From Eledone cirrhosa (lineage: Eukaryota), in NCBI GenBank assembly GCA_964016885.1, contig OZ024741.1:90520001-90584000 (forward strand): a stretch of 64,000 nt of DNA. The letters run 5' to 3'. Positions within the stretch are counted from its first letter, which is position 1; each line of letters starts with the position of its first letter. Under the pieces are notes generated by a model, which saw nothing but the letters and a program-made list of their open reading frames with translations, had not been told where the DNA came from and did not search any database. Position numbers and translations under genes: made by a program. Below, piece after piece: positions 1 to 44,271 of the stretch.

Positions 1-380
1 ACATCCTGATGCCGAGGAGGATATTAGAGGGAGCTAGAGCAAAGTGCCTTCCTGCAGTTATGGTTTTCATTGACTTTAGGAAGGCCTTTGATTCTGTGGA
101 CCGTCACTGCCTGATGAAGAACTTACAGGCTTATGGAATCCCCAAGAAGATAGTGGACCTGATATCACTGCTCTACACCAACACCAAAGCCCTAGTCATT
201 ACACCTGATGGGATGACAGAGATCTTTGAGATACTGGCTGGAGTGCTCCAGGGAGATACATTGACTCCCTACATTTTTATCATCGCAGTGGACTATTGTA
301 TGCGCCTTGCGCTGGAGAAACACCGGGACTCGGGCTTTACTGTAACACCGGCTCAGAGCAGGAGAGTTAAGGCTAAAAGA
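1..380 (+). mobile_element. RTE-clade LINE reverse transcriptase fragment, truncated by microsatellite
   Basis: ORF 9..617 N-terminal part has non-LTR RT motifs FIDFRKAFDSV and [13 protein letters not shown]; it runs into (TA)n/(TG)n at ~380. Confidence 0.85.
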
Positions 381-596
<216 letters not shown>

Positions 597-697
597 TTAT
601 TGCAAATTCATATATAGATAAGATAAACATATTTATTATCGAAATTTAATTTAATATGAATTTTATCCATCATAAAGCAACTTTTATTATTTTGCAG

Positions 698-1276
698 TTT
701 GTGATATTTGGCCTGCGGACATTGTATTTCTACTGGACGATTCCACTAGTATATGGGACAATGATTATGACAAACAACTTACATTCTTATCTGATTTTGT
801 GAAAGATATCACCATTGGTCCGAAGAAATCTCAGATTAGTGTTGTGACATTTAGTTCCCGTCCAAAGACACAATTTTGGCTACGAGACCATTTAAGTAAA
901 ACGGAAGTTTTGAGTGCCATTAAACACATCAATCGAATGTATGGCGATACGTACACCTCTGCTGGATTACGAATGATAAGAGAACACAGTTTCTCACCTC
1001 GATACGGTGGTAGAATGAAAGCTTCACACATTGTTATCGTAATAACAGACGGAAAATCAACAATACCAAGAGAAACTGTAAACCAAGCGAAAAAACTACA
1101 TGATACAAAAGCAATAGTCTTTGCTATTGGTGTTGGTCGCCGTGTTGACCCGATAGAATTGAACAGTATTGCAAGTGAGCAGCAATTTGTTTTCCAGGTT
1201 GACAGCTATGGAGCTTTGACAACGATTAAAACAAAACTATCACAAAAAGTTTGCACACTTTCCATAACAAAAGTAG
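698..1276 (+). CDS. Internal exon encoding one von Willebrand factor A (vWA) domain (collagen VI/matrilin-like extracellular protein)
   Basis: Acceptor ttttattattttgcAG ends at 697. The frame reads CDIWPADIVFLLDDSTSI...VVTFS...GDTYTSAGL...IVITDGKS...VFAIGVG...KVC, with the MIDAS DxSxS, T and D residues and flanking cysteines. Donor G|GTGACT at 1277 gives a symmetric phase 1-1 exon (alternative donor at 1273). Confidence 0.88.
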
Positions 1277-3139
1277 GTGACTGGGATTAAACGAAAATAA
1301 TTCAGGTTTTAAGTACTATAAGGTATTTCATTAATTTCACACACAAACGTGACAGTTCCATAAATATAGATAGCTTTCGCAGTTATTATTTTTATACGAA
1401 ACCAAAGTGAAACTTGAGTGAAAGTTTTCAATATTTGATACTGCATTCATTTAAAGGTTTAAAAAGTTTGAAAGTATTTAGCACCCAATTTCACGGAAAC
1501 GTTTGTCAGAAAAAAATGAGATTGATTAGATGGAATAGTTGCCAAAGAGTTATTGACTTTGTTTAAAAAGGTTTGTAGCAAATTATTGATTATTTATTCT
1601 CCAACCCAAAGCCGAAAACATCGCTGAAATTGTTAATCTTTAAAATAAGATAGATCCAATCTCGATGGATAATTGGTAAATTAATAACGAATGCCACAAA
1701 AGGTAAAGATATACAAAAGTCACTATAATTACTATTACATTCCGCGATATCTCAACAGAATAACTCAAACAGTAATTTTTGTTCTGTTTCTCTCTGTTAC
1801 CTTTCTAAGGAAAGTGAAGAACCTTGAAAATTTCATCATGAGTATAAGTTTTCAATCATTTTAATTATTATTCATTGAGGACGAATACAAGTTAATAATG
1901 ACTAGTTTATAATTGTTCTGTATTCACAATATCTTATAGTAATACACATCTTAATTTTGACTGGAATTTAGGATATTTATATTAGTTATGCATAGAGCAG
2001 AATTAGTAAATTACTCGACGAAATTCTTTGTAGTATTTTGTTGCGTTCAGTTTTAATTTTACTTTGGAATCCAGCTGATGCTGACTTTGGTCGATAAAAT
2101 GAGTGCTGGTCAAGAACTGGGTCCTTTTAATGCCTCCACACAACAATGTGTCCATTGTCTTATGCCTGTTAAAAGTAGCAAATAGATACAATATATATAA
2201 TTTTTAGTCAAAGATAAGTGTTCTCATATAGTTTGGAAGGTTCCTTTGAAAACCTTCGAGCATTTTCTTTTATCATTTGGAATTCGATTCTATTTTCTTG
2301 AGAGAGAACTACCAAGACAATTTATTCTCCTATAATTATTACACCAATCAAAGAGATTCTGTTGTCAACGCTTAAATTGCGGTTTGAGTGTTTGTCTTCT
2401 ACGCTGACCGAGGAGACGCTCTGTGAAAATCAAACCATTTCACAGCAGGGGTATTATAATTCGAAAATTAAAAACGAATTGAAAAGAAAGAAGAAAATGA
2501 AGAATTATAAACAAAAATGGAAAACTATTGGTTTTGAAATTAAAAAAAAAGTATAATCAGTGTAATTGTTTCCCCTTAAAATACTTCAGATTGTTTTTTC
2601 TTCGCAAATACCTTTTATCAGCTGTTGGAAAGTTAGTTGGAAAAACAGTGTTTTTTGTCCACCATTTGTAATAGACTGAGGTCTGAGACGAGAGATGACG
2701 AGAACAGATCGAACTAAACATAATAAAGAAGTACCAATACATACTTACTAATTTTACTCCTTCCTATTCTTTTTATAAGACATTTTTGTAAAGTAGTATT
2801 TTCAGTAATTTATATTTGATACCGATTTGATAATAAAATATGAAAACGAATAAAGAACAGCTCCTGTCTTGTTTATATAGATACAAACTCTATGATACTT
2901 ATGGAAGAGAAAATAGAGATTTGTAAATTTGTCCCCCCCCCCCCCCCAAAAAAAAACACCTGTGAAGTGAAATTGCTTCAATAGCAAATTGAAATCAGCC
3001 TGCATTAATTCCTCACCAACTCTTAGGTTGAATACGTTAAAGAGGATATATTTTCCAATTTATGTCAATGATTGATAAAGATTTCTTACTTAAGACATCA
3101 GTAAATCACAATCATGATTTCATACACTGGTTACAAAAG

Positions 3140-11500: not shown

Positions 11501-13125
11501 TAAAATAACAGATTAAAGTTTAAGCAAAGAATCGCTGCTTTCACCCTTAACGGGATCTTCTGAAACTAACAAAGTCAATCTGTAAACGCAGAACTGAATA
11601 TTTCAAAAAACGTTGCAACCAGAGGAAGACAGGAAAACGATACTTTGGTTCGTGGAAACGTTCGCTGGCAAAGAACGGGAAAAAACAAATAATACGTCAT
11701 TAATAGGAGCGGTGAAAAACAATTACGCGCAAAGACAGAACCACGTTTATGGTATAAAAGAGGTCGTAGACTAATGTTCTCTTAGGTGGTGCATAGAGAC
11801 GTTCTCTGGCAATGAACGAAAAAACGAAGATAATAAGTCATATGTGGAGCGTGGAGAACAATAGCACGCAAAGACAAAACCACGTAAATGGTATAGCAGA
11901 AGTTGTAGACTAAAATCCTAACTAGGAGACCAAATGAATCTCCGCTACAGAGTTAAGAACAAAGTAAATAAATACAATACAGAAGTAATAGAAATAAATA
12001 AATACATACACGCAAACAGATACGTACATACACAAGCATACGCAAAACCTTACCATAGGTATACAAAACCACGCACATATAAATATGTGTGTGTGTGTAT
12101 GCTTGTGTACAAATAAATAAATAATTATATAAACGTATATAAGTAAATAAATAAGTATATAACAAGCGCACACACATACCTACAAATAAATACACGAATG
12201 TTCGGAGACGTAAGTCAACTAAAACAAGAAGTACACATATACACACACCCACCATACGTACGAACCTGCATACTTACGCAGACGCAAAACTCCCGTATAC
12301 ACATAGCCAAACCCTAAATACCAGAATATGTAAAAATTATACGCCATAACAGTCAAATATACGTACGAGAAGGTATACATACCTTCACGAAACATACGGG
12401 TAATATATACTTACCTATGCAAATAAGTAAAGGAATAAACAAAACACATACTTAGCTCCCACATCAAGACGTAAAATATCCACGTATAGATCGTGCTATC
12501 CGTTAGGGTATAACGTGGGGCTGTAATACAGGAAAGTTTTGTGCAATTTATGTTTACAAGCCGAAATTGCCTCAGATTTTTTGTTTAAGATGTGGTCTGT
12601 GGCGTAGAGTATTTCCAGGGCCTCAGCGGCGCAGAGGTCACATGGTCTTTTATTTCCGTTATACGATCTAGCCCTAGCTAGGATCTCCCAGTGTAACTTA
12701 TATTGGGTGTGGTTGTCTTTTAGACTCCAGATATAAGCTGAAAGTGACGTCATATTTCTTCTTAGAGGGTAACGAAAAGAATGGGTATGCATGTAAAGAC
12801 GCTGCTTGAAACTATTGGCGGTTAACCCTATGTAGGCCCTACGGGACGTGGGTGTTACAACCTTACATTTGTAGACAATGTTACTAGAGAGGCATTTCCC
12901 GGATAGGGGCAATCAGCCCGATTCCTACAATTACAGTTAGTACTATCTATAGGGTTGCACGTGTTCCTACGGCTAGGCAGTTTAGCTAAATTTGAAGCTG
13001 TGATGTTATGTGCAAGGTTAGGAGTCGTAGAGTAAGAAATTTTAATAGTATTTCTATTAAAAATTTTACTATATTTATGTGTAGGGGGAAAATGCTTCGT
13101 AATAAGGGAAAGAAAGATCGTCTCA
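11495..13125 (-). mobile_element. 5'-truncated Penelope-like element with frameshifted GIY-YIG endonuclease
   Basis: ORFs 12855..13172 and 12496..12912: KHFP..HKY..IFNRNTIKISYSTTPN, CNCxxxxxC, IVYKC...AYIGLT, CDLC, ACKH; homologous to the 40056 ORF; 3' end in (TA)n. Confidence 0.9.
11517..11567 (-). ncRNA. Variant hammerhead ribozyme (CAGAAGA core), copy of 9305-9355
   Basis: Reverse complement matches 9305-9355. Confidence 0.6.
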
Positions 13126-13363: not shown

Positions 13364-13445
13364 CCTTCTGACGAGAGTTTTTCTTTGTAACGGATGCCGT
13401 ATGGAGTCCGTTTATTTTTGAGACTCGAAACCGATTCGGTAAAGG
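13364..13445 (+). ncRNA. Type-I hammerhead ribozyme, canonical core, extended stem II
   Basis: cctt-CTGACGA-gagt...(aacgga/tccgtt inner helix)...actc-GAAA-ccg-att-cgg-TA-aagg; lies between (TA)n runs. Confidence 0.85.
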
Positions 13446-15125: not shown

Positions 15126-15144
15126 TCCAACAGAAGATTATTAA

Positions 15145-15847
15145 ATATAAAGATTTACATATACATAAAGTCAGAGAGATATATGTGGCAACCGGTCACA
15201 ATAATCTCCCGTTGGGTTGAGATGCAATTGGGCGATATTGGGCTGCGCTTTCTAGCAACCAGCCTACTCGACGTAAGCAACTAATCACATTCTTTCTAAC
15301 TTGACCACTGCCACGTCACGATTCTTAGCCATTTTTTGAATCTATTTCTGGCGCGATCGCTTTGGAAAATTAACTGTCCTATTGAGTTTGTCTCCTGATG
15401 AGTTCGTTACTCTAGATTCATCCTTAATAATAGGATATCTCAAAATACGAACGAAACCATGGTAGAGATGTAATTACGGTATGTACACTTTCTTCTAACT
15501 TTAAATTTATACCTAATTGTGTATGGTTGACGGTATATTTGGTCAGTTTCTACATGCTGTTGAAATGTTGGGTAAATACCCTATTGGCGTCAACCGCGAA
15601 GAGGCAGCTTTCGGTTATTTATCAAATATTTCTTCATAGGAGCCTTTATTCTTATAGCGTGGTCTAATTGATTTTTTATATGGTTAATTATGCTAACTGG
15701 GAGAGGAAATGGTATATATTTTATCTAATAATTCTAAGGACATGATTTATGATATATTGCTCTGATTATTTAATTTATTAATTCTTCATTGAGCCACATC
15801 GTGACCGGTTGCCACATATATATCTGTGACTTTATGTATATGTAAAT

Positions 15848-15855
<8 letters not shown>
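15145..15855 (+). mobile_element. Non-autonomous PLE-like unit with one hammerhead and a ~57-bp inverted copy of its own 3' end
   Basis: 15145-15202 is the reverse complement of 15798-15855; the body is homologous to 33280-33945; ends in (TA)n. Confidence 0.75.
15391..15468 (+). ncRNA. Type-I hammerhead ribozyme, canonical core, palindromic minimal stem III
   Basis: tctc-CTGATGA-gttcgt...acgaac-GAAA-ccatgg-TA-gaga; predicted cut after 15464. Confidence 0.88.
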
Positions 15856-15926
<71 letters not shown>

Positions 15927-17474: not shown

Positions 17475-17942
17475 ATTATATCTAATTTTGAGTCAAAATA
17501 GATAGAAGATATCTGAATTAATTTCCAATACCATCGTCACACCTTCTACACTAGCAGCTGATTTGCATTTTTTGCATCTTTTAGTATGGCGGATATTTAA
17601 ATATATTTACATTACCAATAATATTTAATACGACCCTAAAGTAGTATATGCAGGAAGTGCTGGACTCTGAAAAAGATTTCTTCTAGTTGTTTATAAATTT
17701 GCACCTTTTTCAGTAACCCCTAATATTTTAATATTATTATAAGACTTTAAATAATATGTTTGCTATCCTAAAATGGAGAAATTTCAATTTTTAAAAATTA
17801 AAATTCTTTTTTTACTAGTTAAGTTTTTCCAAATATCTAAAATTAAAGTTAATTTAAGTACTTTTTGTAATAAAATAAACTTAATTTCTCTTGTTTATTA
17901 ATGTCATATTAAAAATATTAACTGTAGATAAATAACCTTGAT

Positions 17943-19826
17943 ATGATGTCTACTGCAAAGAAGCTGAAGTTAGATACCAGCAGTAAAGTTAGACAGTGGT
18001 GTGATGATTATGTTAGATATGGATTTCAAAAAGCTGACACTAAAAAAGATACACCAGATCAGCCCATGTGTTTGCTATGTTCAAAAGTTCTATCAAATCT
18101 TGCAAAACTTAAAAGACACCTTGATACTAATCACACCAATGATAAAAGCAAGTCATTGGAATACTTTACTTCGCTGAAAAATAACATTAAAAAAATCACA
18201 AGCTAATATGCATGACTTGTTTTGTAAAAAGTCAGATAGAAATAAAGCTTTAACAAGAACATCTTTTGAAATTTCCCATTTGATTGGTAAAAACAAGAAA
18301 CCATTTACATTAGGAGAACAGTTAATTCTACCAAGTATAAAAATTGCTACAGAGAATCTTTTTGAAAGTTGCAGTATTAAGGACAAAGAAAAATTAAGCG
18401 AGTTACCATTGTCAGCAAATACTGTAAAAAGAAGGATAATTGATATTTCTTCTGATATAGAAAATCAGATACTAACTGCACTAAAGAAAAGCACATGTTT
18501 TGGTCTGCAAGTGGACGAAACTACGGATATTAATAACAAGGCTCAATTAATTTGCTATGTACGGTTTGTAGACCTTGATAAAAAAGAATTAGTAGAAGAG
18601 TATTTGTTTTGTCTGGTATTAGACATCACAACTAAAGGTCAAGATATATTCAATAAAATTGAAGAGTATTTAAAAAAAATGGTGTATCTTGGAGCAAGTT
18701 GACTTCAATAACAACAGATGGAGCAGCTGCAATGACTGGTAAAAATTCTGGTTTGATTGCAAAAATTAAAGAACAGACCCCAAATTGTATTTCAAATCAT
18801 TGTATGATTCATTGAGAGGTTTTGTGTTCAAAAAAATTCAAAGACAGAGATGCTCAAATATTAAATGACCAGCTGAAAGACATTGTCAACATTATCAATT
18901 TGATCCATGCAAGAGCAAAACATTCTAGAATGTTTGAATCTATTTGTGAATCTTCTGGAAGTAATTATAATAGATTGTTATTGAACAATGATGTGCGTTG
19001 GCTGTCTTTTGGGGATGCTTTGAAGAGAGTTTTTGAACTGAGAGAAGAAATAATAGTTTTTCTAAAAAAACAGAATGATGAAAGAGCAAGTGTATTAGAA
19101 ACCAATGAATGGAATGTGCAACTCGCTTATTTAGTAGACATTTTTGGTGAACTGAACAAACTAAATAAGTGTCTTCAGGGTAACAATGCAGATATTTTTA
19201 CTTCAATCAATTTTATTACATATTTTCAATCAAAATTAAACATCTTTATGAAAAGAATTGAATCGGACAAGTACTCATTACTTTCAAACCTTGAAATAGA
19301 GCTTAAAAAGAGAGAAGATTTTGACTCCAGCAATCTAAAGAAGATTATTCTTTCTCATTTAAATGTGCTTTCCACAAGTTTTTCAGATTATTTTGACTTG
19401 ATGGAAAAAGATATTGTTAGCGGAAATTTATGGATAAAAAACCCGTTTACTGAGATCGAGCAGTTAGTGTCAGAAAATGACGCTGGAAATTGTAAAAATT
19501 TAGTACCTGCACAATGCTTACATCAGTTGATGGATTTGAATTCAAACGAAGACCTAAAAGTGATATTTGAAAGCAGAAAGAAAGAACTATGGATCGACTT
19601 ATTCTTGATTGGGTAGTTTAATGAAATCAGTCAACTTGCATTGAAATATTTGACTTTATTCCCATCTAGCTACTTGTGCGAAGGGTTTTCGCAGTTGGTA
19701 GAAATCTGCACAAAGAAGATGAATAAACTATCAGCAATTGACGAGTGTATGAGACTGGCATTAACTAGTGTTGAACCTCGATTTTCTAAACTCACTGATG
19801 AGGCGCAGCAGCAGAAAAGCCACTAG
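17943..19826 (+). pseudogene. hAT transposase (ZBED5/SCAND3-like), with frameshifts and stop codons
   Basis: BED finger CLLC...LKRHLDTNH, FGLQVDETTD, TTDGAAAMTG, CMIH, VRWLS, FPSSYLCE-GFS; split across ORFs starting 17943, 18208, 18822 and 19641. Confidence 0.92.
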
Positions 19827-23342: not shown

Positions 23343-23380
23343 CCTTTTGAAAAGCAGAAGAACTGCGAAACCGGTAAAGG
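23343..23380 (+). ncRNA. Minimal 38-nt type-I hammerhead ribozyme with U3:A8 core
   Basis: cctt-TTGAAAA-gcag-aagaa-ctgc-GAAA-ccgg-TA-aagg. Confidence 0.8.
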
Positions 23381-32840: not shown

Positions 32841-32885
32841 AATATTGGCACCTATGTCAGTAAACCACAAATCTACTGAATCACC

Positions 32886-32947
<62 letters not shown>

Positions 32948-32998
32948 GGTGATTCAGTAGATTTGTGGTTTACTGATATATGTGCCAATATTAGTACT
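32835..32998. repeat. ~57-bp inverted repeat centred on (TA)n
   Basis: 32835-32891 pairs with 32942-32998, two mismatches. Confidence 0.9.
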
Positions 32999-37784: not shown

Positions 37785-39197
<1,413 letters not shown>

Positions 39198-39776
39198 TTG
39201 CTGCACTGGGCCGTTGCTGGCCCGGGATGGAAACCTTTATTGTTTATTTCGTGGTAGTCTCTTTAGTATTTTGGCCCCTTTTGTTGACCCGTCACCGTAT
39301 CATTTACGTACTTATACCTCTTAAAAGGGTCCATGCCTATTCCGTCCCACCTAGTTCTTTTACTTATTTCGTTATTTCTTTCTTTATTTTTTTCTTTACT
39401 TCTTTCTTTCTTTCTTTATTTTATTCTAGCCTAACAATAGCCTGAGACCTAGGTCGTAGAATTTAATTTACTTTACTTTTTTCTTTACACTTATTTGCTT
39501 TTCTTCACTCTCAGTATTTTTTCTTTCCTATATATTTCTACCCCTTCTACCCCCCATTGTTCTACCTACCGTTCCGACTTCCTCCCCCTCCCCCTCCCCT
39601 GTATCTTCTTTGACCTCATGCCCAGCTGTAGCTGGCACTACCAACGCTTGATTGGGTCTACTCCACCCCCGCCCCTCTTTCTCCTACTGGCAGGTTTAGC
39701 CACCATCTCCCCTACTAATTTGCAACCACAGAATTACTACTGATTTTTGACAATCACTTTGACCATATATGGAATT

Positions 39777-39870
39777 ACCCCTTGAGAAGATCGGCTATTT
39801 AAATACCAGGATAAATTTTCATTTAGTCCAGAATTAGCCGTCGAAACGGCTTGAGCTCAGCTGTCGGGGT
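39777..39870 (+). ncRNA. Type-I hammerhead ribozyme with U3:A8 core in the 5' pLTR
   Basis: acccc-TTGAGAA-ga(t)cggcta...tagccgtc-GAAA-cggc-ttgagctca-gctg-TC-ggggt; GUC cut predicted after 39865. Confidence 0.82.
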
Positions 39871-40055
39871 CTTACTGGTTCCTATTACCCACTCTACTAC
39901 CTCAAGTATTGAGTACTTTGGTGCGTTATGGTCCACCTGGTTCCTTACCACATTTCCTTCGTTATCTAGCTCCTACTCCCGTAGTAGAGCACTTTCTGAC
40001 CCTACCACGCCGTATCCAGACTTTTCCGCTAAGCTCAATTCATTTCACCCGCACC

Positions 40056-42227
40056 ATGCGAAAACACAACATTGACTTCTCTACCAAGAACATCCCAATC
40101 CCACCGAAAAAACTTTACCTTCGGATGCTCACGCAAAAAATCGATCTATTTGCGAAAAGACTTAGATGGAGAACTTTTTTCTATGACAGATATTGCGACA
40201 ACCAAGACTTCGGCACCAAGGAGAGATTCGGATTTATTACCTACAAATCTCCGCCCCTGAACCCCTTGCTCGCACCCTTCGAGAATGACCTCTTCCAACT
40301 GGTCAAGAACATTAAATTTAAACCCAGACACAACCGATTCCTACAAAAACTCCGTAGCAACTTAACAGAGTATGATAACACAAATGACATCATGGTGCAT
40401 TCGGATAAAACTGGGAACCTATACTTTGTCAACCCTGACAGATACCACACACTGATCAGGAGCAGCCTAAACTCCACCTATAAAAAGGCCAACCACTCTT
40501 GCATCGAGGACATAAATCGAGATGGACAACAAATCACCTCCAGCCTCGGGGTCGCCGACCGCACGGAACCTCTAGACCCACGGACATCATACTTCACACT
40601 GAAGGACCATAAATCCGATTTTGACCGTAAACGCTCTATCAGGCTTATTAACCCAACGAAGTCCGACATAGGGAGAATCAGCAAAAAAATCCTAGACCGC
40701 GTGATACCAAAAGTCAAGCAACACACCCGACTTAGCCTATGGATCAACACCCAGGAAGTAATCTCCTGGTTCAGCAATATGGAGGATAAACGAGAAACTA
40801 AATTCATACAGTTCGACATAGAGAGCTACTATGCTTCAATCACCTTACCGCTACTTACTGCCGCCTTGGACTTCGCCGAAACACTTGTGCCCATCACCGA
40901 CCAGGAAAGAAAAATCATCCTCCACGCCAGGAAGACAGTCTTACTCTTTGACGACTCTAAATGGATAAAAAGAGCTCCCGACTCACCCTTCGACGTCAGC
41001 ATGGGCGCCACGGATTCGGCGGAGGTCACAGATCTTATAGGATTATTCCTAATAGCCAAACTCACTGATATGTTTCCTGCATTCGGTGGTAGATTGTACC
41101 GTGATGATGGGCTCCTTACCCTTAAAGGGTACAACCCCAGTAGTACAGATCGGGTCCGGAAACAATTAATCAGATTCTTCCGCGACTGGGGATTTAAAAT
41201 AACCCTACAAACGTCCCTGACCCGAGTAAACTTCCTGGACGTGACCCTCGACCTCGAAAACGACCTGTACTACCCATACAGGAAACCTAATGACAATCTG
41301 CACTACATCCACCGCCGATCAAACCATCCTAGGAACATCACAAACAACCTGGTCAAAAACATCTCCCTCCGCATATCCCGTTTGTCAGCTAATGAGCGGA
41401 TATTCGATGAACATGCGCCTTATTACAACCAGGCCCTCAAGCGGAGTGGTTTCCGGGAGGAAATATCCTACTGTCCAGCTCCCATTAGCGGAACCAGCAG
41501 GAGACACCGCCGCTCACGCAATGTAACATGGTTCAATCTTCCCCACAACGCAGAGGTGACAACTCCCATCGGGAAACTATTCTTTAGGCTCATTGAAAAA
41601 CACTTCCCATTACAACACCGCTACCACAACATAATTAACAAAAATACCATCAAACTCTCTTACAGCACTACACCAAACTTCGCACAAAACATCGTCTCCT
41701 CTAACAACAAAAAACTCAACCCCGATGGCAGAAATAACCTAAATAGCAGTGGAGAACCGACCAGGAGGTGTAACTGCCCGGATAGATCTATTTGCCCACT
41801 CGACAATAGATGCAGAAACCGTAATGTGATCTACCAGTGCAACGTGAGGACGGATACCTCCAACAAAGCCTATATAGGACTTACCGCATGTGACTTCAAG
41901 ACCCGGCTATACCAACATAGACATACCTTCCGAAACCCGGCCCGGCGTCACGCTACTACACTTTCGGGCCACATATGGGACCTCAAGGACAACAACATCA
42001 CCTATGATCTCACTTGGAGATTACTGTCCAGAGCCAATTCTTACACGGGAGGACGCCGTCCGTGCAATTTATGCTCGGAGGAAACTTTACAAATGCTGTT
42101 TTCGACGGACCAACTCCTAAACAAGAAAGATGAACTGGTTACTGCATGTAAACATAGATTGCGTAGGACTTACCTCGCCCTCAAACCCCATAATGACCCG
42201 GGGGGGGGGGGTAGACTAGGGCTATAA
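40056..42227 (+). CDS. PLE polyprotein: reverse transcriptase plus C-terminal GIY-YIG endonuclease (723 aa from the first ATG)
   Basis: Uninterrupted frame (track ORF 39909..42227); ATG in GCACCATG context. DKTGN; RT motifs FIQFDIESYY, VSMGATDS, LYRDDG, FLDVTL; linker CNC-x5-C-x5-C; VIY...YIG; CNLC; ACKH. Confidence 0.93.
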   Translation: MRKHNIDFSTKNIPIPPKKLYLRMLTQKIDLFAKRLRWRTFFYDRYCDNQDFGTKERFGFITYKSPPLNPLLAPFENDLFQLVKNIKFKPRHNRFLQKLRSNLTEYDNTNDIMVHSDKTGNLYFVNPDRYHTLIRSSLNSTYKKANHSCIEDINRDGQQITSSLGVADRTEPLDPRTSYFTLKDHKSDFDRKRSIRLINPTKSDIGRISKKILDRVIPKVKQHTRLSLWINTQEVISWFSNMEDKRETKFIQFDIESYYASITLPLLTAALDFAETLVPITDQERKIILHARKTVLLFDDSKWIKRAPDSPFDVSMGATDSAEVTDLIGLFLIAKLTDMFPAFGGRLYRDDGLLTLKGYNPSSTDRVRKQLIRFFRDWGFKITLQTSLTRVNFLDVTLDLENDLYYPYRKPNDNLHYIHRRSNHPRNITNNLVKNISLRISRLSANERIFDEHAPYYNQALKRSGFREEISYCPAPISGTSRRHRRSRNVTWFNLPHNAEVTTPIGKLFFRLIEKHFPLQHRYHNIINKNTIKLSYSTTPNFAQNIVSSNNKKLNPDGRNNLNSSGEPTRRCNCPDRSICPLDNRCRNRNVIYQCNVRTDTSNKAYIGLTACDFKTRLYQHRHTFRNPARRHATTLSGHIWDLKDNNITYDLTWRLLSRANSYTGGRRPCNLCSEETLQMLFSTDQLLNKKDELVTACKHRLRRTYLALKPHNDPGGGGRLGL

Positions 42228-43334
42228 CACCCCACTTGCCGATTTTGCAATGGGTAACCCCTGCTTGCCAAGGAAGACGTAAGATCTTCTTTGTATTCTT
42301 TTATCGCTTCCTTTATTTCCTTCCCCCCTCTCTCCTTAGTCCTTCTACCCCAGCTCTTCTCCTTTGTCGGCGTCTTTTCTCGCCCACCCGAGGCTGCCCT
42401 TTGGCCCCATGTAGCCTTAGTACCCCCACCACCCCCTCCCCTAGTCTATGATAGATTTGGCGGACTCCGCCCTTTATAGCAGTTGGCTTAGACCCCGGAT
42501 ACTTGCCCCCTTTTTCCGACCGCTCCCACTATTCTCTGTGCCCTCTATATTTCTTAGTGGCACTTATGCCTTATTTTTTCGTTTCAGTATCTCTTGCTCC
42601 GCTTTTCTTCTGGGCGGGGTGGATTCTGAATTTATTTCTCCGTATTCTACCTTAATTTCGTACGAACTTTCATGTAGCTTGTTTTAGATCTTTTAGAGTT
42701 AGCATTAGTATATATTTTTCTCGGGACTCAGAATTATTATCTCGTACAAGTTCACTTTGCTGCACTGGGCCGTTGCTGGCCCGGGATGGAAACCTTTATT
42801 GTTTATTTCGTGGTAGTCTCTTTAGTATTTTGGCCCCTTTTGTTGACCCGTCACCGTATCATTTACGTACTTATACCTTTTAAACGGGTCCTTGCCTATA
42901 CCGTCCCACCTAGTTCTTTTACTTATTTCGTTATTTCTTTATTTATTTTTTTCTTTACTTCTTTCTTTCTTTCTTTATTTTATTCTAGCCTAACAATAGC
43001 CTGAGACCTAGGTCGTAGAATTTAATTTACTTTACTTTTTTCTTTACACTTATTTGCTTTTCTTCACTCTCAGTATTTTTTCTTTCCTATATATTTCTAC
43101 CCCTTCTACCCCCCATTGTTCTACCTACCGTTCCGACTTCCTCCCCCTCCCCCTCCCCTGTATCTTCTTTGACCTCATGCCCAGCTGTAGCTGGCACTAC
43201 CAACGCTTGATTGGGTCTACTCCACCCCGCCCCTCTCTCTCCTACTGGCAGGTTTAGCCACCATCTCCCCTACTAATTTGCAACCACAGAATTACTACTG
43301 ATTTTTGACAATCACTTTGACCATATATGGAATT

Positions 43335-43428
43335 ACCCCTTGAGAAGATCGGCTATTTAAATACCAGGATAAATTTTCATTTAGTCCAGAATTAGCCGTC
43401 GAAACGGCTTGAGCTCAGCTGTCGGGGT
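43335..43428 (+). ncRNA. Type-I hammerhead ribozyme with U3:A8 core in the 3' pLTR
   Basis: Same sequence as 39777-39870; cut predicted after 43423. Confidence 0.82.
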
Positions 43429-43506
43429 CTTACTGGTTCCTATTACCCACTCTACTACCTCAAGTATTGAGTACTTTGGTGCGTTATGGTCCACCTGGTT
43501 CCTTAC

Positions 43507-43573
<67 letters not shown>

Positions 43574-43758
43574 ATAGATACATACACACATATATATATA
43601 CTTACACACATATACATTAATAACAATAATAATAATAATAATAACGACAATAATAATAACAACAACAACAATAATAATATACATATACATATATATATAG
43701 ACACACACACACACACATAAACATATCTATACACACACACACACACACACGACAGCAA

Positions 43759-44150
43759 CTAACAGCGCTGCGATCGAATGTGGCTTTTTAGCCCAGCCAA
43801 TGATCTAAAATGTCTTGCACAGAGTCGGCAACCAAAACATTCACTGGGAATAGCCGGCTGTGGTTGGAGTTCATATACTTTTGCATGTCGCTTGAGCCCT
43901 CCTGCTGATCTACATTCTCTACCACATGTTTGGCAAGCATGATGAGTAGCATCTCCAACAGTAGCCTGGTAGTCAACTGGTCTTACTTTATGACTGCGAA
44001 GATGACTTTCGAGTCCAGCTTTGCTTAGGCAGAGTCTCGCACAGACGCTGCATGTCAGCACCATAGGAGGACCCTCGCCGTCTGGAAGTGCAACAGAAAT
44101 GCCCTTCCTCACATCCCGCTTTATTTTCTCGTATGTGATTCGAGATGCCT
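43759..44150 (-). mobile_element. RTE/BovB-like LINE C-terminus with three C2H2-type zinc fingers
   Basis: CSVC...KAGLESHLRSH; CQTC...AGGLKRHAKVY; CRLC...LAGLKSHIRSQRC*; followed by a microsatellite tail. Confidence 0.65.
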
Positions 44151-44160
44151 CAAATATACA

Positions 44161-44271
<111 letters not shown>

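Follow-up and report, generated by a model that had tools for sequence, protein, structure and literature searches.

What the arm ends of a Hydra-type Penelope-like element family in Eledone cirrhosa suggest about its promoter, ribozyme and template

Penelope-like elements (PLEs) are the sister group of telomerase reverse transcriptase (RT), and both their replication and the role of their hammerhead ribozymes are in question. Several described systems bear on this question (here and below, our statements on them draw on the accessible parts of the cited papers). In the Hydra clade of PLEs, a partial tandem, an inverted 5' copy and a one-sided tail have been described (Craig et al. 2021, PMC8557442). 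For the Anolis Poseidon element PAc, cutting of both target strands and extension from them have been observed in vitro (Frangieh et al. 2024, PMC11167929). For PLEs, a scheme of ribozyme cleavage, ligation and reverse transcription beyond unit length has been proposed (Cervera & de la Pena 2014, PMC4209133), in a text that states the circle model as one without in-vivo evidence and that also reports the U3-A8 ribozyme core from Schistosoma PLEs. Circles have been shown for small non-coding retrozymes (PMC7229834; Li et al. bioRxiv 10.64898/2026.07.22.740005), and RtcB ligates animal retrozyme RNAs in vitro (PMC7229834). Here we analyse a PLE from Eledone cirrhosa, found in a stretch of 64,000 nucleotides (contig OZ024741.1 of assembly GCA_964016885.1, positions 90,520,001 to 90,584,000 of the forward strand; ‘the window’ below), together with its family.

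The window copy is a real, intact Hydra-type PLE in an already published arrangement. Both this anatomy and the circle idea are in print, and the value of the present work is a family-wide census of arm ends, that is, of the points at which the two arms of each insertion begin and stop. At the level of sequence, this census points to a promoter within the ribozyme, to ribozyme cleavage in vivo, to twin priming at two fixed sites (+20 and +100) and to a template that is effectively endless. Signed positions are counted from the predicted ribozyme cut: +1 is the first base after it (39866 in the window), -1 is 39865, and the unit is 3558 nt. L numbers denote single family loci and C numbers contigs of the genome assembly G000 (3.0 Gb), in which the exact-pattern counts were made.

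By repeat and alignment comparison, the whole insertion spans 38172-43511 and consists of an inverted arm followed by 1.19 direct units. The earlier note had placed the element at 39195..43511; its end stands, but its start lies at 38172, because the note missed an inverted arm (38172..39197, minus strand), which carries a third, minus-strand hammerhead. The 3' end of this arm is at +20 after the cut and its 5' end at -1005, adjoining a tract whose cDNA is G-rich. Through a 3-nt overlap (39195-39197) it is joined head-to-head to the 5' pseudo-long terminal repeat (pLTR), of which the 670 nt upstream of the cut (39195..39865, +) would be a second-round copy. The two pLTRs (39195-39953 and 42754-43511) are 99.1% identical across 759 nt, near-identical as had been claimed. 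The copy further comprises the priming region (39866..39965, +), where family arms begin at +20 (39885) and +100 (39965), the open reading frame (ORF; 40056..42227, +), which encodes 723 amino acids (aa) with RT and GIY-YIG parts, and a long 3' non-coding region (42228..43334, +) that contains most of the 3' pLTR. The copy closes with a 3' tail (43424..43511, +) that ends at +88 in (TA)n, the family norm being +100. The 80 nt between +20 and +100 constitute the tail that is present on only one arm. The element ends differ from the cut sites, lying +20 (38172) and +88 (43511) past them, and (TA)n adjoins both. The spacing of the cuts, read earlier as delimiting exactly one unit, is indeed 3558 nt; by itself it is no evidence, since any partial tandem gives the same spacing.

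A type I hammerhead descriptor finds three ribozymes in the copy: hammerhead 1 at 39777..39870 (+; predicted cut after 39865), hammerhead 2 at 43335..43428 (+; after 43423) and hammerhead 3 at 38187..38280 (minus strand; after 38192). It thereby recovers the two plus-strand cuts and the palindromic loop reported before. The predicted core is UUGAGAA, a U3-A8 variant; stem I has 5 bp (ACCCC/GGGGU), stem III has 4-5 bp with the palindromic loop TGAGCTCA, and the long loop II (~36 nt) holds TATA- and initiator (Inr)-like motifs. By descriptor and folding, the element thus has the type I hammerhead in its pLTR that is typical of the Hydra clade, as a predicted U3-A8 variant. The hammerhead is the minimum-free-energy fold of 39765-39885, with a z-score of only -0.33, and a search of the window against Rfam with a limit of E<=1 turned up microsatellite artefacts only, and no hammerhead. 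The ribozyme can also be assembled in trans, with its 5' half at the 3' terminus of the RNA paired with its 3' half at the 5' end; this is the predicted cofold minimum, at -29.3 kcal/mol vs -15.9 for the separate halves.

The family is large and young. Relatives of the ORF protein numbered 1,242 among 8,000 candidates, the 40 best-scored ORF matches in G000 are all full length at 99-100% identity, and 38 of the 45 ORF starts examined read 717-724 aa (a variable-length G run at the ORF end, 42198-42227, alters the last residues among copies). Shared ORF variants are 14 synonymous to 10 non-synonymous, vs 46:73 for singletons. These data bear out the claim of an intact, autonomous and young element. 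Exact patterns of the ribozyme 3' half occur 9,940 times in G000 and those of the 5' half 2,124 times. Junctions of +20 with (TA)n number 7,346 and those of +100 with (TA)n 22,508 (older subfamilies included), which bears out the proposed (TA)n preference, a Hydra trait; only 306 copies read on past +100. In three runs of unrecorded kind, contigs of two organisms show the +100 end, and one organism also shows the +20 end. The second organism (run X5, organism B) carries the family with the same +100 end.

The first regularity in the census is a two-arm rule. In a sample of 59 consecutive +20 junctions (14 of whose rows were set by hand from a separate reading of the loci), an inverted partner stands head-to-head with 53, and these partners end at +97/+100 in 50 cases, at +33 in one and as jump products in two. 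Contigs C1-C2 supplied every first-50 and first-100 sample given below. Where both ends of a long insertion can be seen (28 cases), one always lies at +17..20 and the other at +88..100, in either order. The trinucleotide TAT is present at +20, 44, 64, 100 and 150, and +44, +64 and +150 were not seen as ends. Moreover, the arms of one insertion share a source. Divergence between segments has a median of 0.38% within insertions vs 1.8% between them and is lower within in 34 of 34; lineage markers are concordant in 339 cases and discordant in 45 (mostly at a few repeat-adjacent sites); and 88 variants private to one insertion are present in all of its segments, five of them in the window copy. 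We infer twin priming on one RNA, because the arms share a source and because the Poseidon protein cuts and extends both strands. Either of the two can be the longer arm, which disfavours simple fold-back.

The most abundant class of insertion consists of arms that stop near -41. G000 holds 12,477 mini-palindromes in which each arm comes to its end shortly upstream of stem II, at about -41 within loop II, and in the sample both arms end at -21..-50 in 38 of 59 insertions. Farthest ends are most frequent at -41/-40 and break off at -45, beyond which there are none; upstream of this edge the counts are flat, with 2,080 arms passing -59 and 2,124 reaching about -90. The stop coincides with the only pairs of TATA-like and Inr-like motifs in the unit (found in 1 of 5,000 local shuffles), namely a TATA-like box at the start of loop II (39796..39803, -70..-63, +) and two overlapping Inr-like motifs (39819..39828, +) with their A at 39821 (-45) and 39825 (-41). 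The Inr-like hexamer reads TTAGTC in 142 of 157 arms and TCAGT(C/A) in 8. On each of their two passes, short jump products (L206, L208, L223, L226, L242) stop at -30..-42, in keeping with a physical end of the RNA, and L165 has four ends at -44. Transcription therefore probably starts, as far as arm ends and motifs tell, at about -41/-45 inside loop II, which would leave the 5' ribozyme incomplete in cis. Cleavage would nevertheless be open to a transcript that begins at -41, because its two ends are predicted to cofold into a hammerhead. Mini-copies are inverted pairs with the ribozyme 3' half only, and the element itself is coding; non-LTR retrozymes are non-coding tandems with a complete hammerhead per unit. 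Apart from this, L205 (on C1632) and L197/L198 are tandem arrays of a 47-54-nt unit (-41..+6/+11), with at least nine copies in L205; these satellite-like repeats were apparently born from repeated RT jumps.

A second class stops at the cut site itself. In G000, the arms of 306 insertions join within 30 nt. Among the first 50 of these joints, 28 have both arms at -1..+4, and 18 of the 28 carry untemplated bases; for the remaining 10, microhomology of 1-2 nt is an alternative origin of the join. For the whole set the class is estimated at 170 insertions. Jump products L221, L237 and L244 stop at the cut (+1/-2) on both passes. A sister group offers a comparison. By hand count, 71 of the first 100 of its 991 long arms have a mismatched C3.A8 core and 10 of its first 50 joints are cut-site joints. 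The cut-site class makes up 0.53% of 10,149 sister junctions vs 2.3% of 7,346, that is, about 4-fold rarer (Fisher p 4e-4), a drop close to the share of the sister group that retains U3-A8, to which age differences and trans rescue may contribute. Indirectly, insertions with both arms ending at the cut make it probable that the ribozyme cuts in vivo. We found no report of such genomic cut-site evidence for in-vivo cleavage in a literature search that missed most subscription papers. At one locus, L202 (C21:26630015-26630064), a jump that leaves -41 lands precisely on -1 and brings in 10 additional bases, mostly A, which may reflect a ribozyme-cut 3' end that had been oligo-adenylated.

The third class, long arms, raises the question of the template. 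Of 38 long direct arms, 27 pass the cut once more and end 153-3,418 nt farther on, none of them at -21..-50, and each of 27 head-to-head junctions is unique. Among 40 read-through loci, the 17 with short segments never pass -50, whereas 20 of the 23 long ones pass -80, two stop before the cut and one at it (here L220 was re-read by hand as +13, and L229 and L234 were left out of the second-pass stops at about -41). Altogether, 0 of 47 long arms that cross the cut again stopped at -21..-50, and 238 of 240 cut crossings, counted on fetched loci, are scar-free. The partners of long arms are long as well (in the consecutive sample, 0 of 6 had a -21..-50 partner). Since long arms neither stop nor scar there, neither -41 nor +1 was an effective end of their template. 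The simplest template of this kind would be a ligated circle, a reading of the arm ends to which we give about an even chance. The earlier suggestion of replication through a unit-length, possibly circular RNA thus survives in part: the circle is the best single reading, while productive copying from linear cut-to-cut RNA finds no support, because priming at +20/+100 on it would yield only 120-130-nt dead ends.

These three classes can be joined in one explanation. Both DNA strands of a (TA)n target would be cut, and both ends would be primed on one RNA, at +20 and +100. The capped RNA would start at about -41/-45, so that RT from +20/+100 runs off its end and leaves palindromes of ~200 nt, the majority product. 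The ribozyme would cut, for example after the 5' half at the RNA 3' end has paired with the 3' half at the 5' end. Linear cut RNA would give arms stopping at +1. Ligation of the cut ends would give a circle of ~3.55 kb, across whose junction the RT could pass and go round, rebuilding a 5' pLTR of any length, promoter included. The window copy, with its 1.19 units and 1-kb inverted arm, would belong to the third class. For this whole explanation, in which two-arm insertion into (TA)n is primed at both ends on one RNA and full-length copies come from a cut and re-ligated circle, we regard the case for and against as evenly balanced. A bolder version is more tentative, and we hold it to be somewhat less probable than its negation: a promoter would be hidden in the hammerhead, the capped mRNA would self-cut only when its ends meet, a protein-coding 3.5-kb circle would be copied by twin-primed rolling-circle RT, and the genome would keep tens of thousands of fossils of the capped, cut and circular states.

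Several points weigh against this explanation. In folding, a hairpin that buries the GAAA core competes with the hammerhead at about 50:50 (0.49 vs 0.50). One of 20 mini-pairs (L087) has two short ends. The TATA and Inr motifs follow definitions that were chosen after the stop pile-up had been seen, and older subfamilies have a weaker TATA-like box. A single base, -1005 (window 42419-42445; L032, L041), is the end point of three inverted arms; sequence-set stalls thus exist, and -41 could be a block rather than an end. This -1005 stop adjoins the cDNA-G-rich tract, a possible site of quadruplex stalling. Hundreds of long arms come from elements with a mismatched C3.A8 core, which is unexpected for a strictly ribozyme-dependent circle, unless residual activity or trans rescue is at work. 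Two of 21 scarred jump loci, both from -40/-41, lead into long arms (L202 to -1 with its 10 extra nt, L193 to +12); because of these scarred jumps, a linear, terminally redundant RNA can also give long arms. A 4-unit array (C1:91.47-91.49 Mb; L140-L142) shows ABAB variants and lengths of 3542/3543, which suggests DNA-level doubling or a dimeric template. Tandem arrays as proof of a rolling circle were set aside on account of this ABAB pattern in one array. In Poseidon, ribozyme mutants inserted normally in vitro, and the accessible text reports no RNA-seq reads ending at the cut (PMC11167929).

The strongest rival keeps twin priming and drops the circle. In it, the template would be a linear, terminally redundant RNA running from -41 to the 3' ribozyme or beyond, and short cDNA would be transferred by homology, resembling retroviral strong-stop transfer, with cutting of the 5' ribozyme as a dead-end side reaction. 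This would explain the identity of the arms and the scar-free crossings as well as a circle does. It gains from the C3.A8 long arms and the two scarred jumps just described, from the RT's evident ability to jump (17 short jump products in the 40 read-through loci) and from a Poseidon ribozyme that was not needed in vitro (PMC11167929). Yet it would require near-perfect transfer at every return to -41, where 0 of 47 long arms stopped, while the observed jumps lack homology, in many cases carry scars and come to a renewed stop at -41. The ratio of long arms to junctions is 0.10 for the mostly mismatched group vs 0.30 for the U3-A8 group, a comparison confounded by age. PLE RTs are also not known to have RNase H, which counts against strand transfer. 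On this evidence we consider it rather unlikely, though a serious competitor.

We think it improbable that uncleaved read-through or tandem transcripts are the template (the scenario of Frangieh et al. 2024), with -41 as a protein or structure roadblock that acts on the first pass only. In its favour, there are arrays of 3-4.5 units, folding places a cDNA hairpin immediately ahead of the -41 stop, and unprocessed RNA was the dominant substrate in vitro (PMC11167929). However, such a template could only shorten the 5' pLTR and let the pLTRs diverge, and divergence is lower within the insertion in all 34 comparisons; the 27 unique head-to-head junctions mean that none was inherited from a parent; and short jump products stop at about -41 again on their second pass. 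Less probable still is an origin of the head-to-head repeats in fold-back self-priming, perhaps with an antisense template (Arkhipova 2013) and with the ends trimmed by the nuclease. It has been proposed in print (PMC3846280), and many joints here lie at short palindromes such as the stem III loop, but either arm can be longer, and in 18 of 50 joints both arms end at the sense-strand cut with untemplated bases between them. We give hardly any credence to excision from a host intron by the twin ribozymes with a protein that mobilizes the window's other hammerhead units: a read-through transcript would include the whole 5' ribozyme and could contribute to the cut-site class, and 38 kb upstream, on the strand of the element, there are host von Willebrand A (VWA) exons, but none was found downstream, up to 120 kb past the end of the window, the other ribozyme units compared have no sequence in common with the element and most arms end at an internal promoter-like site.

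Both of these latter ideas had been put forward in the earlier note, and neither is supported. The host gene is represented by two VWA domain exons, one at window positions 676-1287 (+) and one about 2 kb before the window's first base (about -2470..-1898 in window numbering); exons were found only upstream, and the 5' stops speak for a promoter of the element's own. A search for VWA domains and an ORF listing in 264 kb found no host gene spanning the copy, a search that would miss non-VWA exons. Other type I hammerhead-like motifs with a long loop II lie at 13441, 15464, 33515 (+), 23376 (+) and 50704 (minus strand), those at 23376 and 50704 having been found by descriptor. The similarity comparison took in the motifs at 13441, 15464 and 33515, and these three showed no significant similarity to the element (best E 0.09). 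By eye, the motifs at 15464 and 33515 look related to each other, and the former sits between 61-nt inverted repeats (15142-15202 and 15798-15858).

At its target, the copy is bordered by a left flank (37921..38171, minus strand) that is an inverted duplicate of about 250 nt of the right flank, which with the (TA)n target extends over 43512..43779 (+) and is microsatellite-rich. Inverted-duplicate flanks were seen in 8 of 121 insertions (the window copy, L113, L083 and L114 among them) and in 0 controls; the element may insert into, or create, a (TA)n-centred palindrome. Elsewhere in the window, 32857-32976 is a perfect palindrome with (TA)n at its centre, unique arms and no element inside. 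Beside the target site, 43762-44271 (minus strand) holds a triple C2H2 zinc-finger frame, which we take to resemble the 3' end of an RTE-type LINE whose microsatellite tail is the target. A broken relic at 12499-13118 (minus strand) belongs to a sister Hydra-type family, with 52% identity to residues 508-717, and 17928-19616 (+) contains broken transposase-like frames with a weak DUF4371 match, presumably hAT-like.

Assignment of this autonomous, young element to the Hydra clade is supported by motifs in the predicted protein. The 723-aa ORF is open, as claimed, and is the single ORF with a telomerase-related RT that characterizes EN+ PLEs, with RWR at 37, DKT at 117 and YRDD at 348. Its C-terminal part carries the CxCx5C linker CNCPDRSIC at 572, VIY at 591 and YIG at 606, CNLC (CxxC) at 670 and CKH (CxH) at 698. 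At motif level the GIY-YIG endonuclease is present, VIY/YIG being conserved in alignment A1, and CCHH is absent on reading the sequence. With RWR as the RWK-type motif, the set agrees with the published clade definition (PMC8557442), as the earlier note had it for DKT, the linker, CxxC and a KCRH-like motif, and when compared by eye, its first ~400 aa line up with the motifs of published Hydra ORFs one by one. A structure model of the protein has a pLDDT of 88.6, with TERT (3du5) as its top Foldseek match (E 4e-9). Pfam assigned 0 families to the ORF protein, and among 30 alignment members it recognized RVT_1 in three and GIY-YIG in one; a PDB sequence search with the ORF gave no match below E 0.4. 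The PLE architecture is also there: a pLTR partial tandem, an inverted 5'-truncated copy and an optional tail. The unit, at ~3.52-3.63 kb, is longer than the short unit (<3 kb) listed for the clade, which is a descriptive rather than a defining trait.

For the wider question of PLE replication, the family yields base-resolution predictions from DNA alone: a start at -41/-45, a cut at +1 and priming at +20 and +100, one per end. It also provides a natural control in its ribozyme-core variant (C3.A8), along with many intact ORFs. Twin priming would explain both head-to-head pLTRs and the one-sided tail, and more than 12,000 palindromes resembling miniature inverted-repeat transposable elements (MITEs) are identified as by-products of retrotransposition.

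Among known systems, the Hydra clade is the closest. Like its members, the element has a C-terminal GIY-YIG domain without CCHH, the RWK-type, DKT, CxCx5C, CxxC and CxH motifs, (TA)n targeting, a type I hammerhead and a partial tandem with an inverted 5'-truncated copy (PMC8557442). Unlike them, it has a unit of ~3.55 kb rather than generally <3 kb, a tail of 80 nt rather than 30-40 and a U3-A8 core with a 4-5 bp stem III and a ~36-nt loop II, where loops II of 3-9 nt are listed in the accessible text (PMC8557442), and its family has more than 22,000 tail junctions. With the Penelope elements of Adineta vaga and D. virilis it shares a promoter in the pLTR (a probable one here, TATA plus Inr-like in A. 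vaga) and head-to-head inverted pLTRs with palindromic joints (PMC3846280, PMC2377424); the A. vaga joints were explained by self-priming (PMC3846280). A start inside the ribozyme and mass run-off palindromes are absent from the accessible parts of those descriptions. The mini-elements are inverted pairs with half a ribozyme and hence, unlike the small elements for which circles are known, not retrozymes. Finally, PAc likewise has two internal RT starts downstream of the cut that define the tail, and an AT-rich target (PMC11167929). In PAc the ribozyme is dispensable in vitro and no reads at the cut are reported in the text accessible to us (PMC11167929), whereas here genomic joints lie at the cut, and each insertion of this family uses one start site per end.

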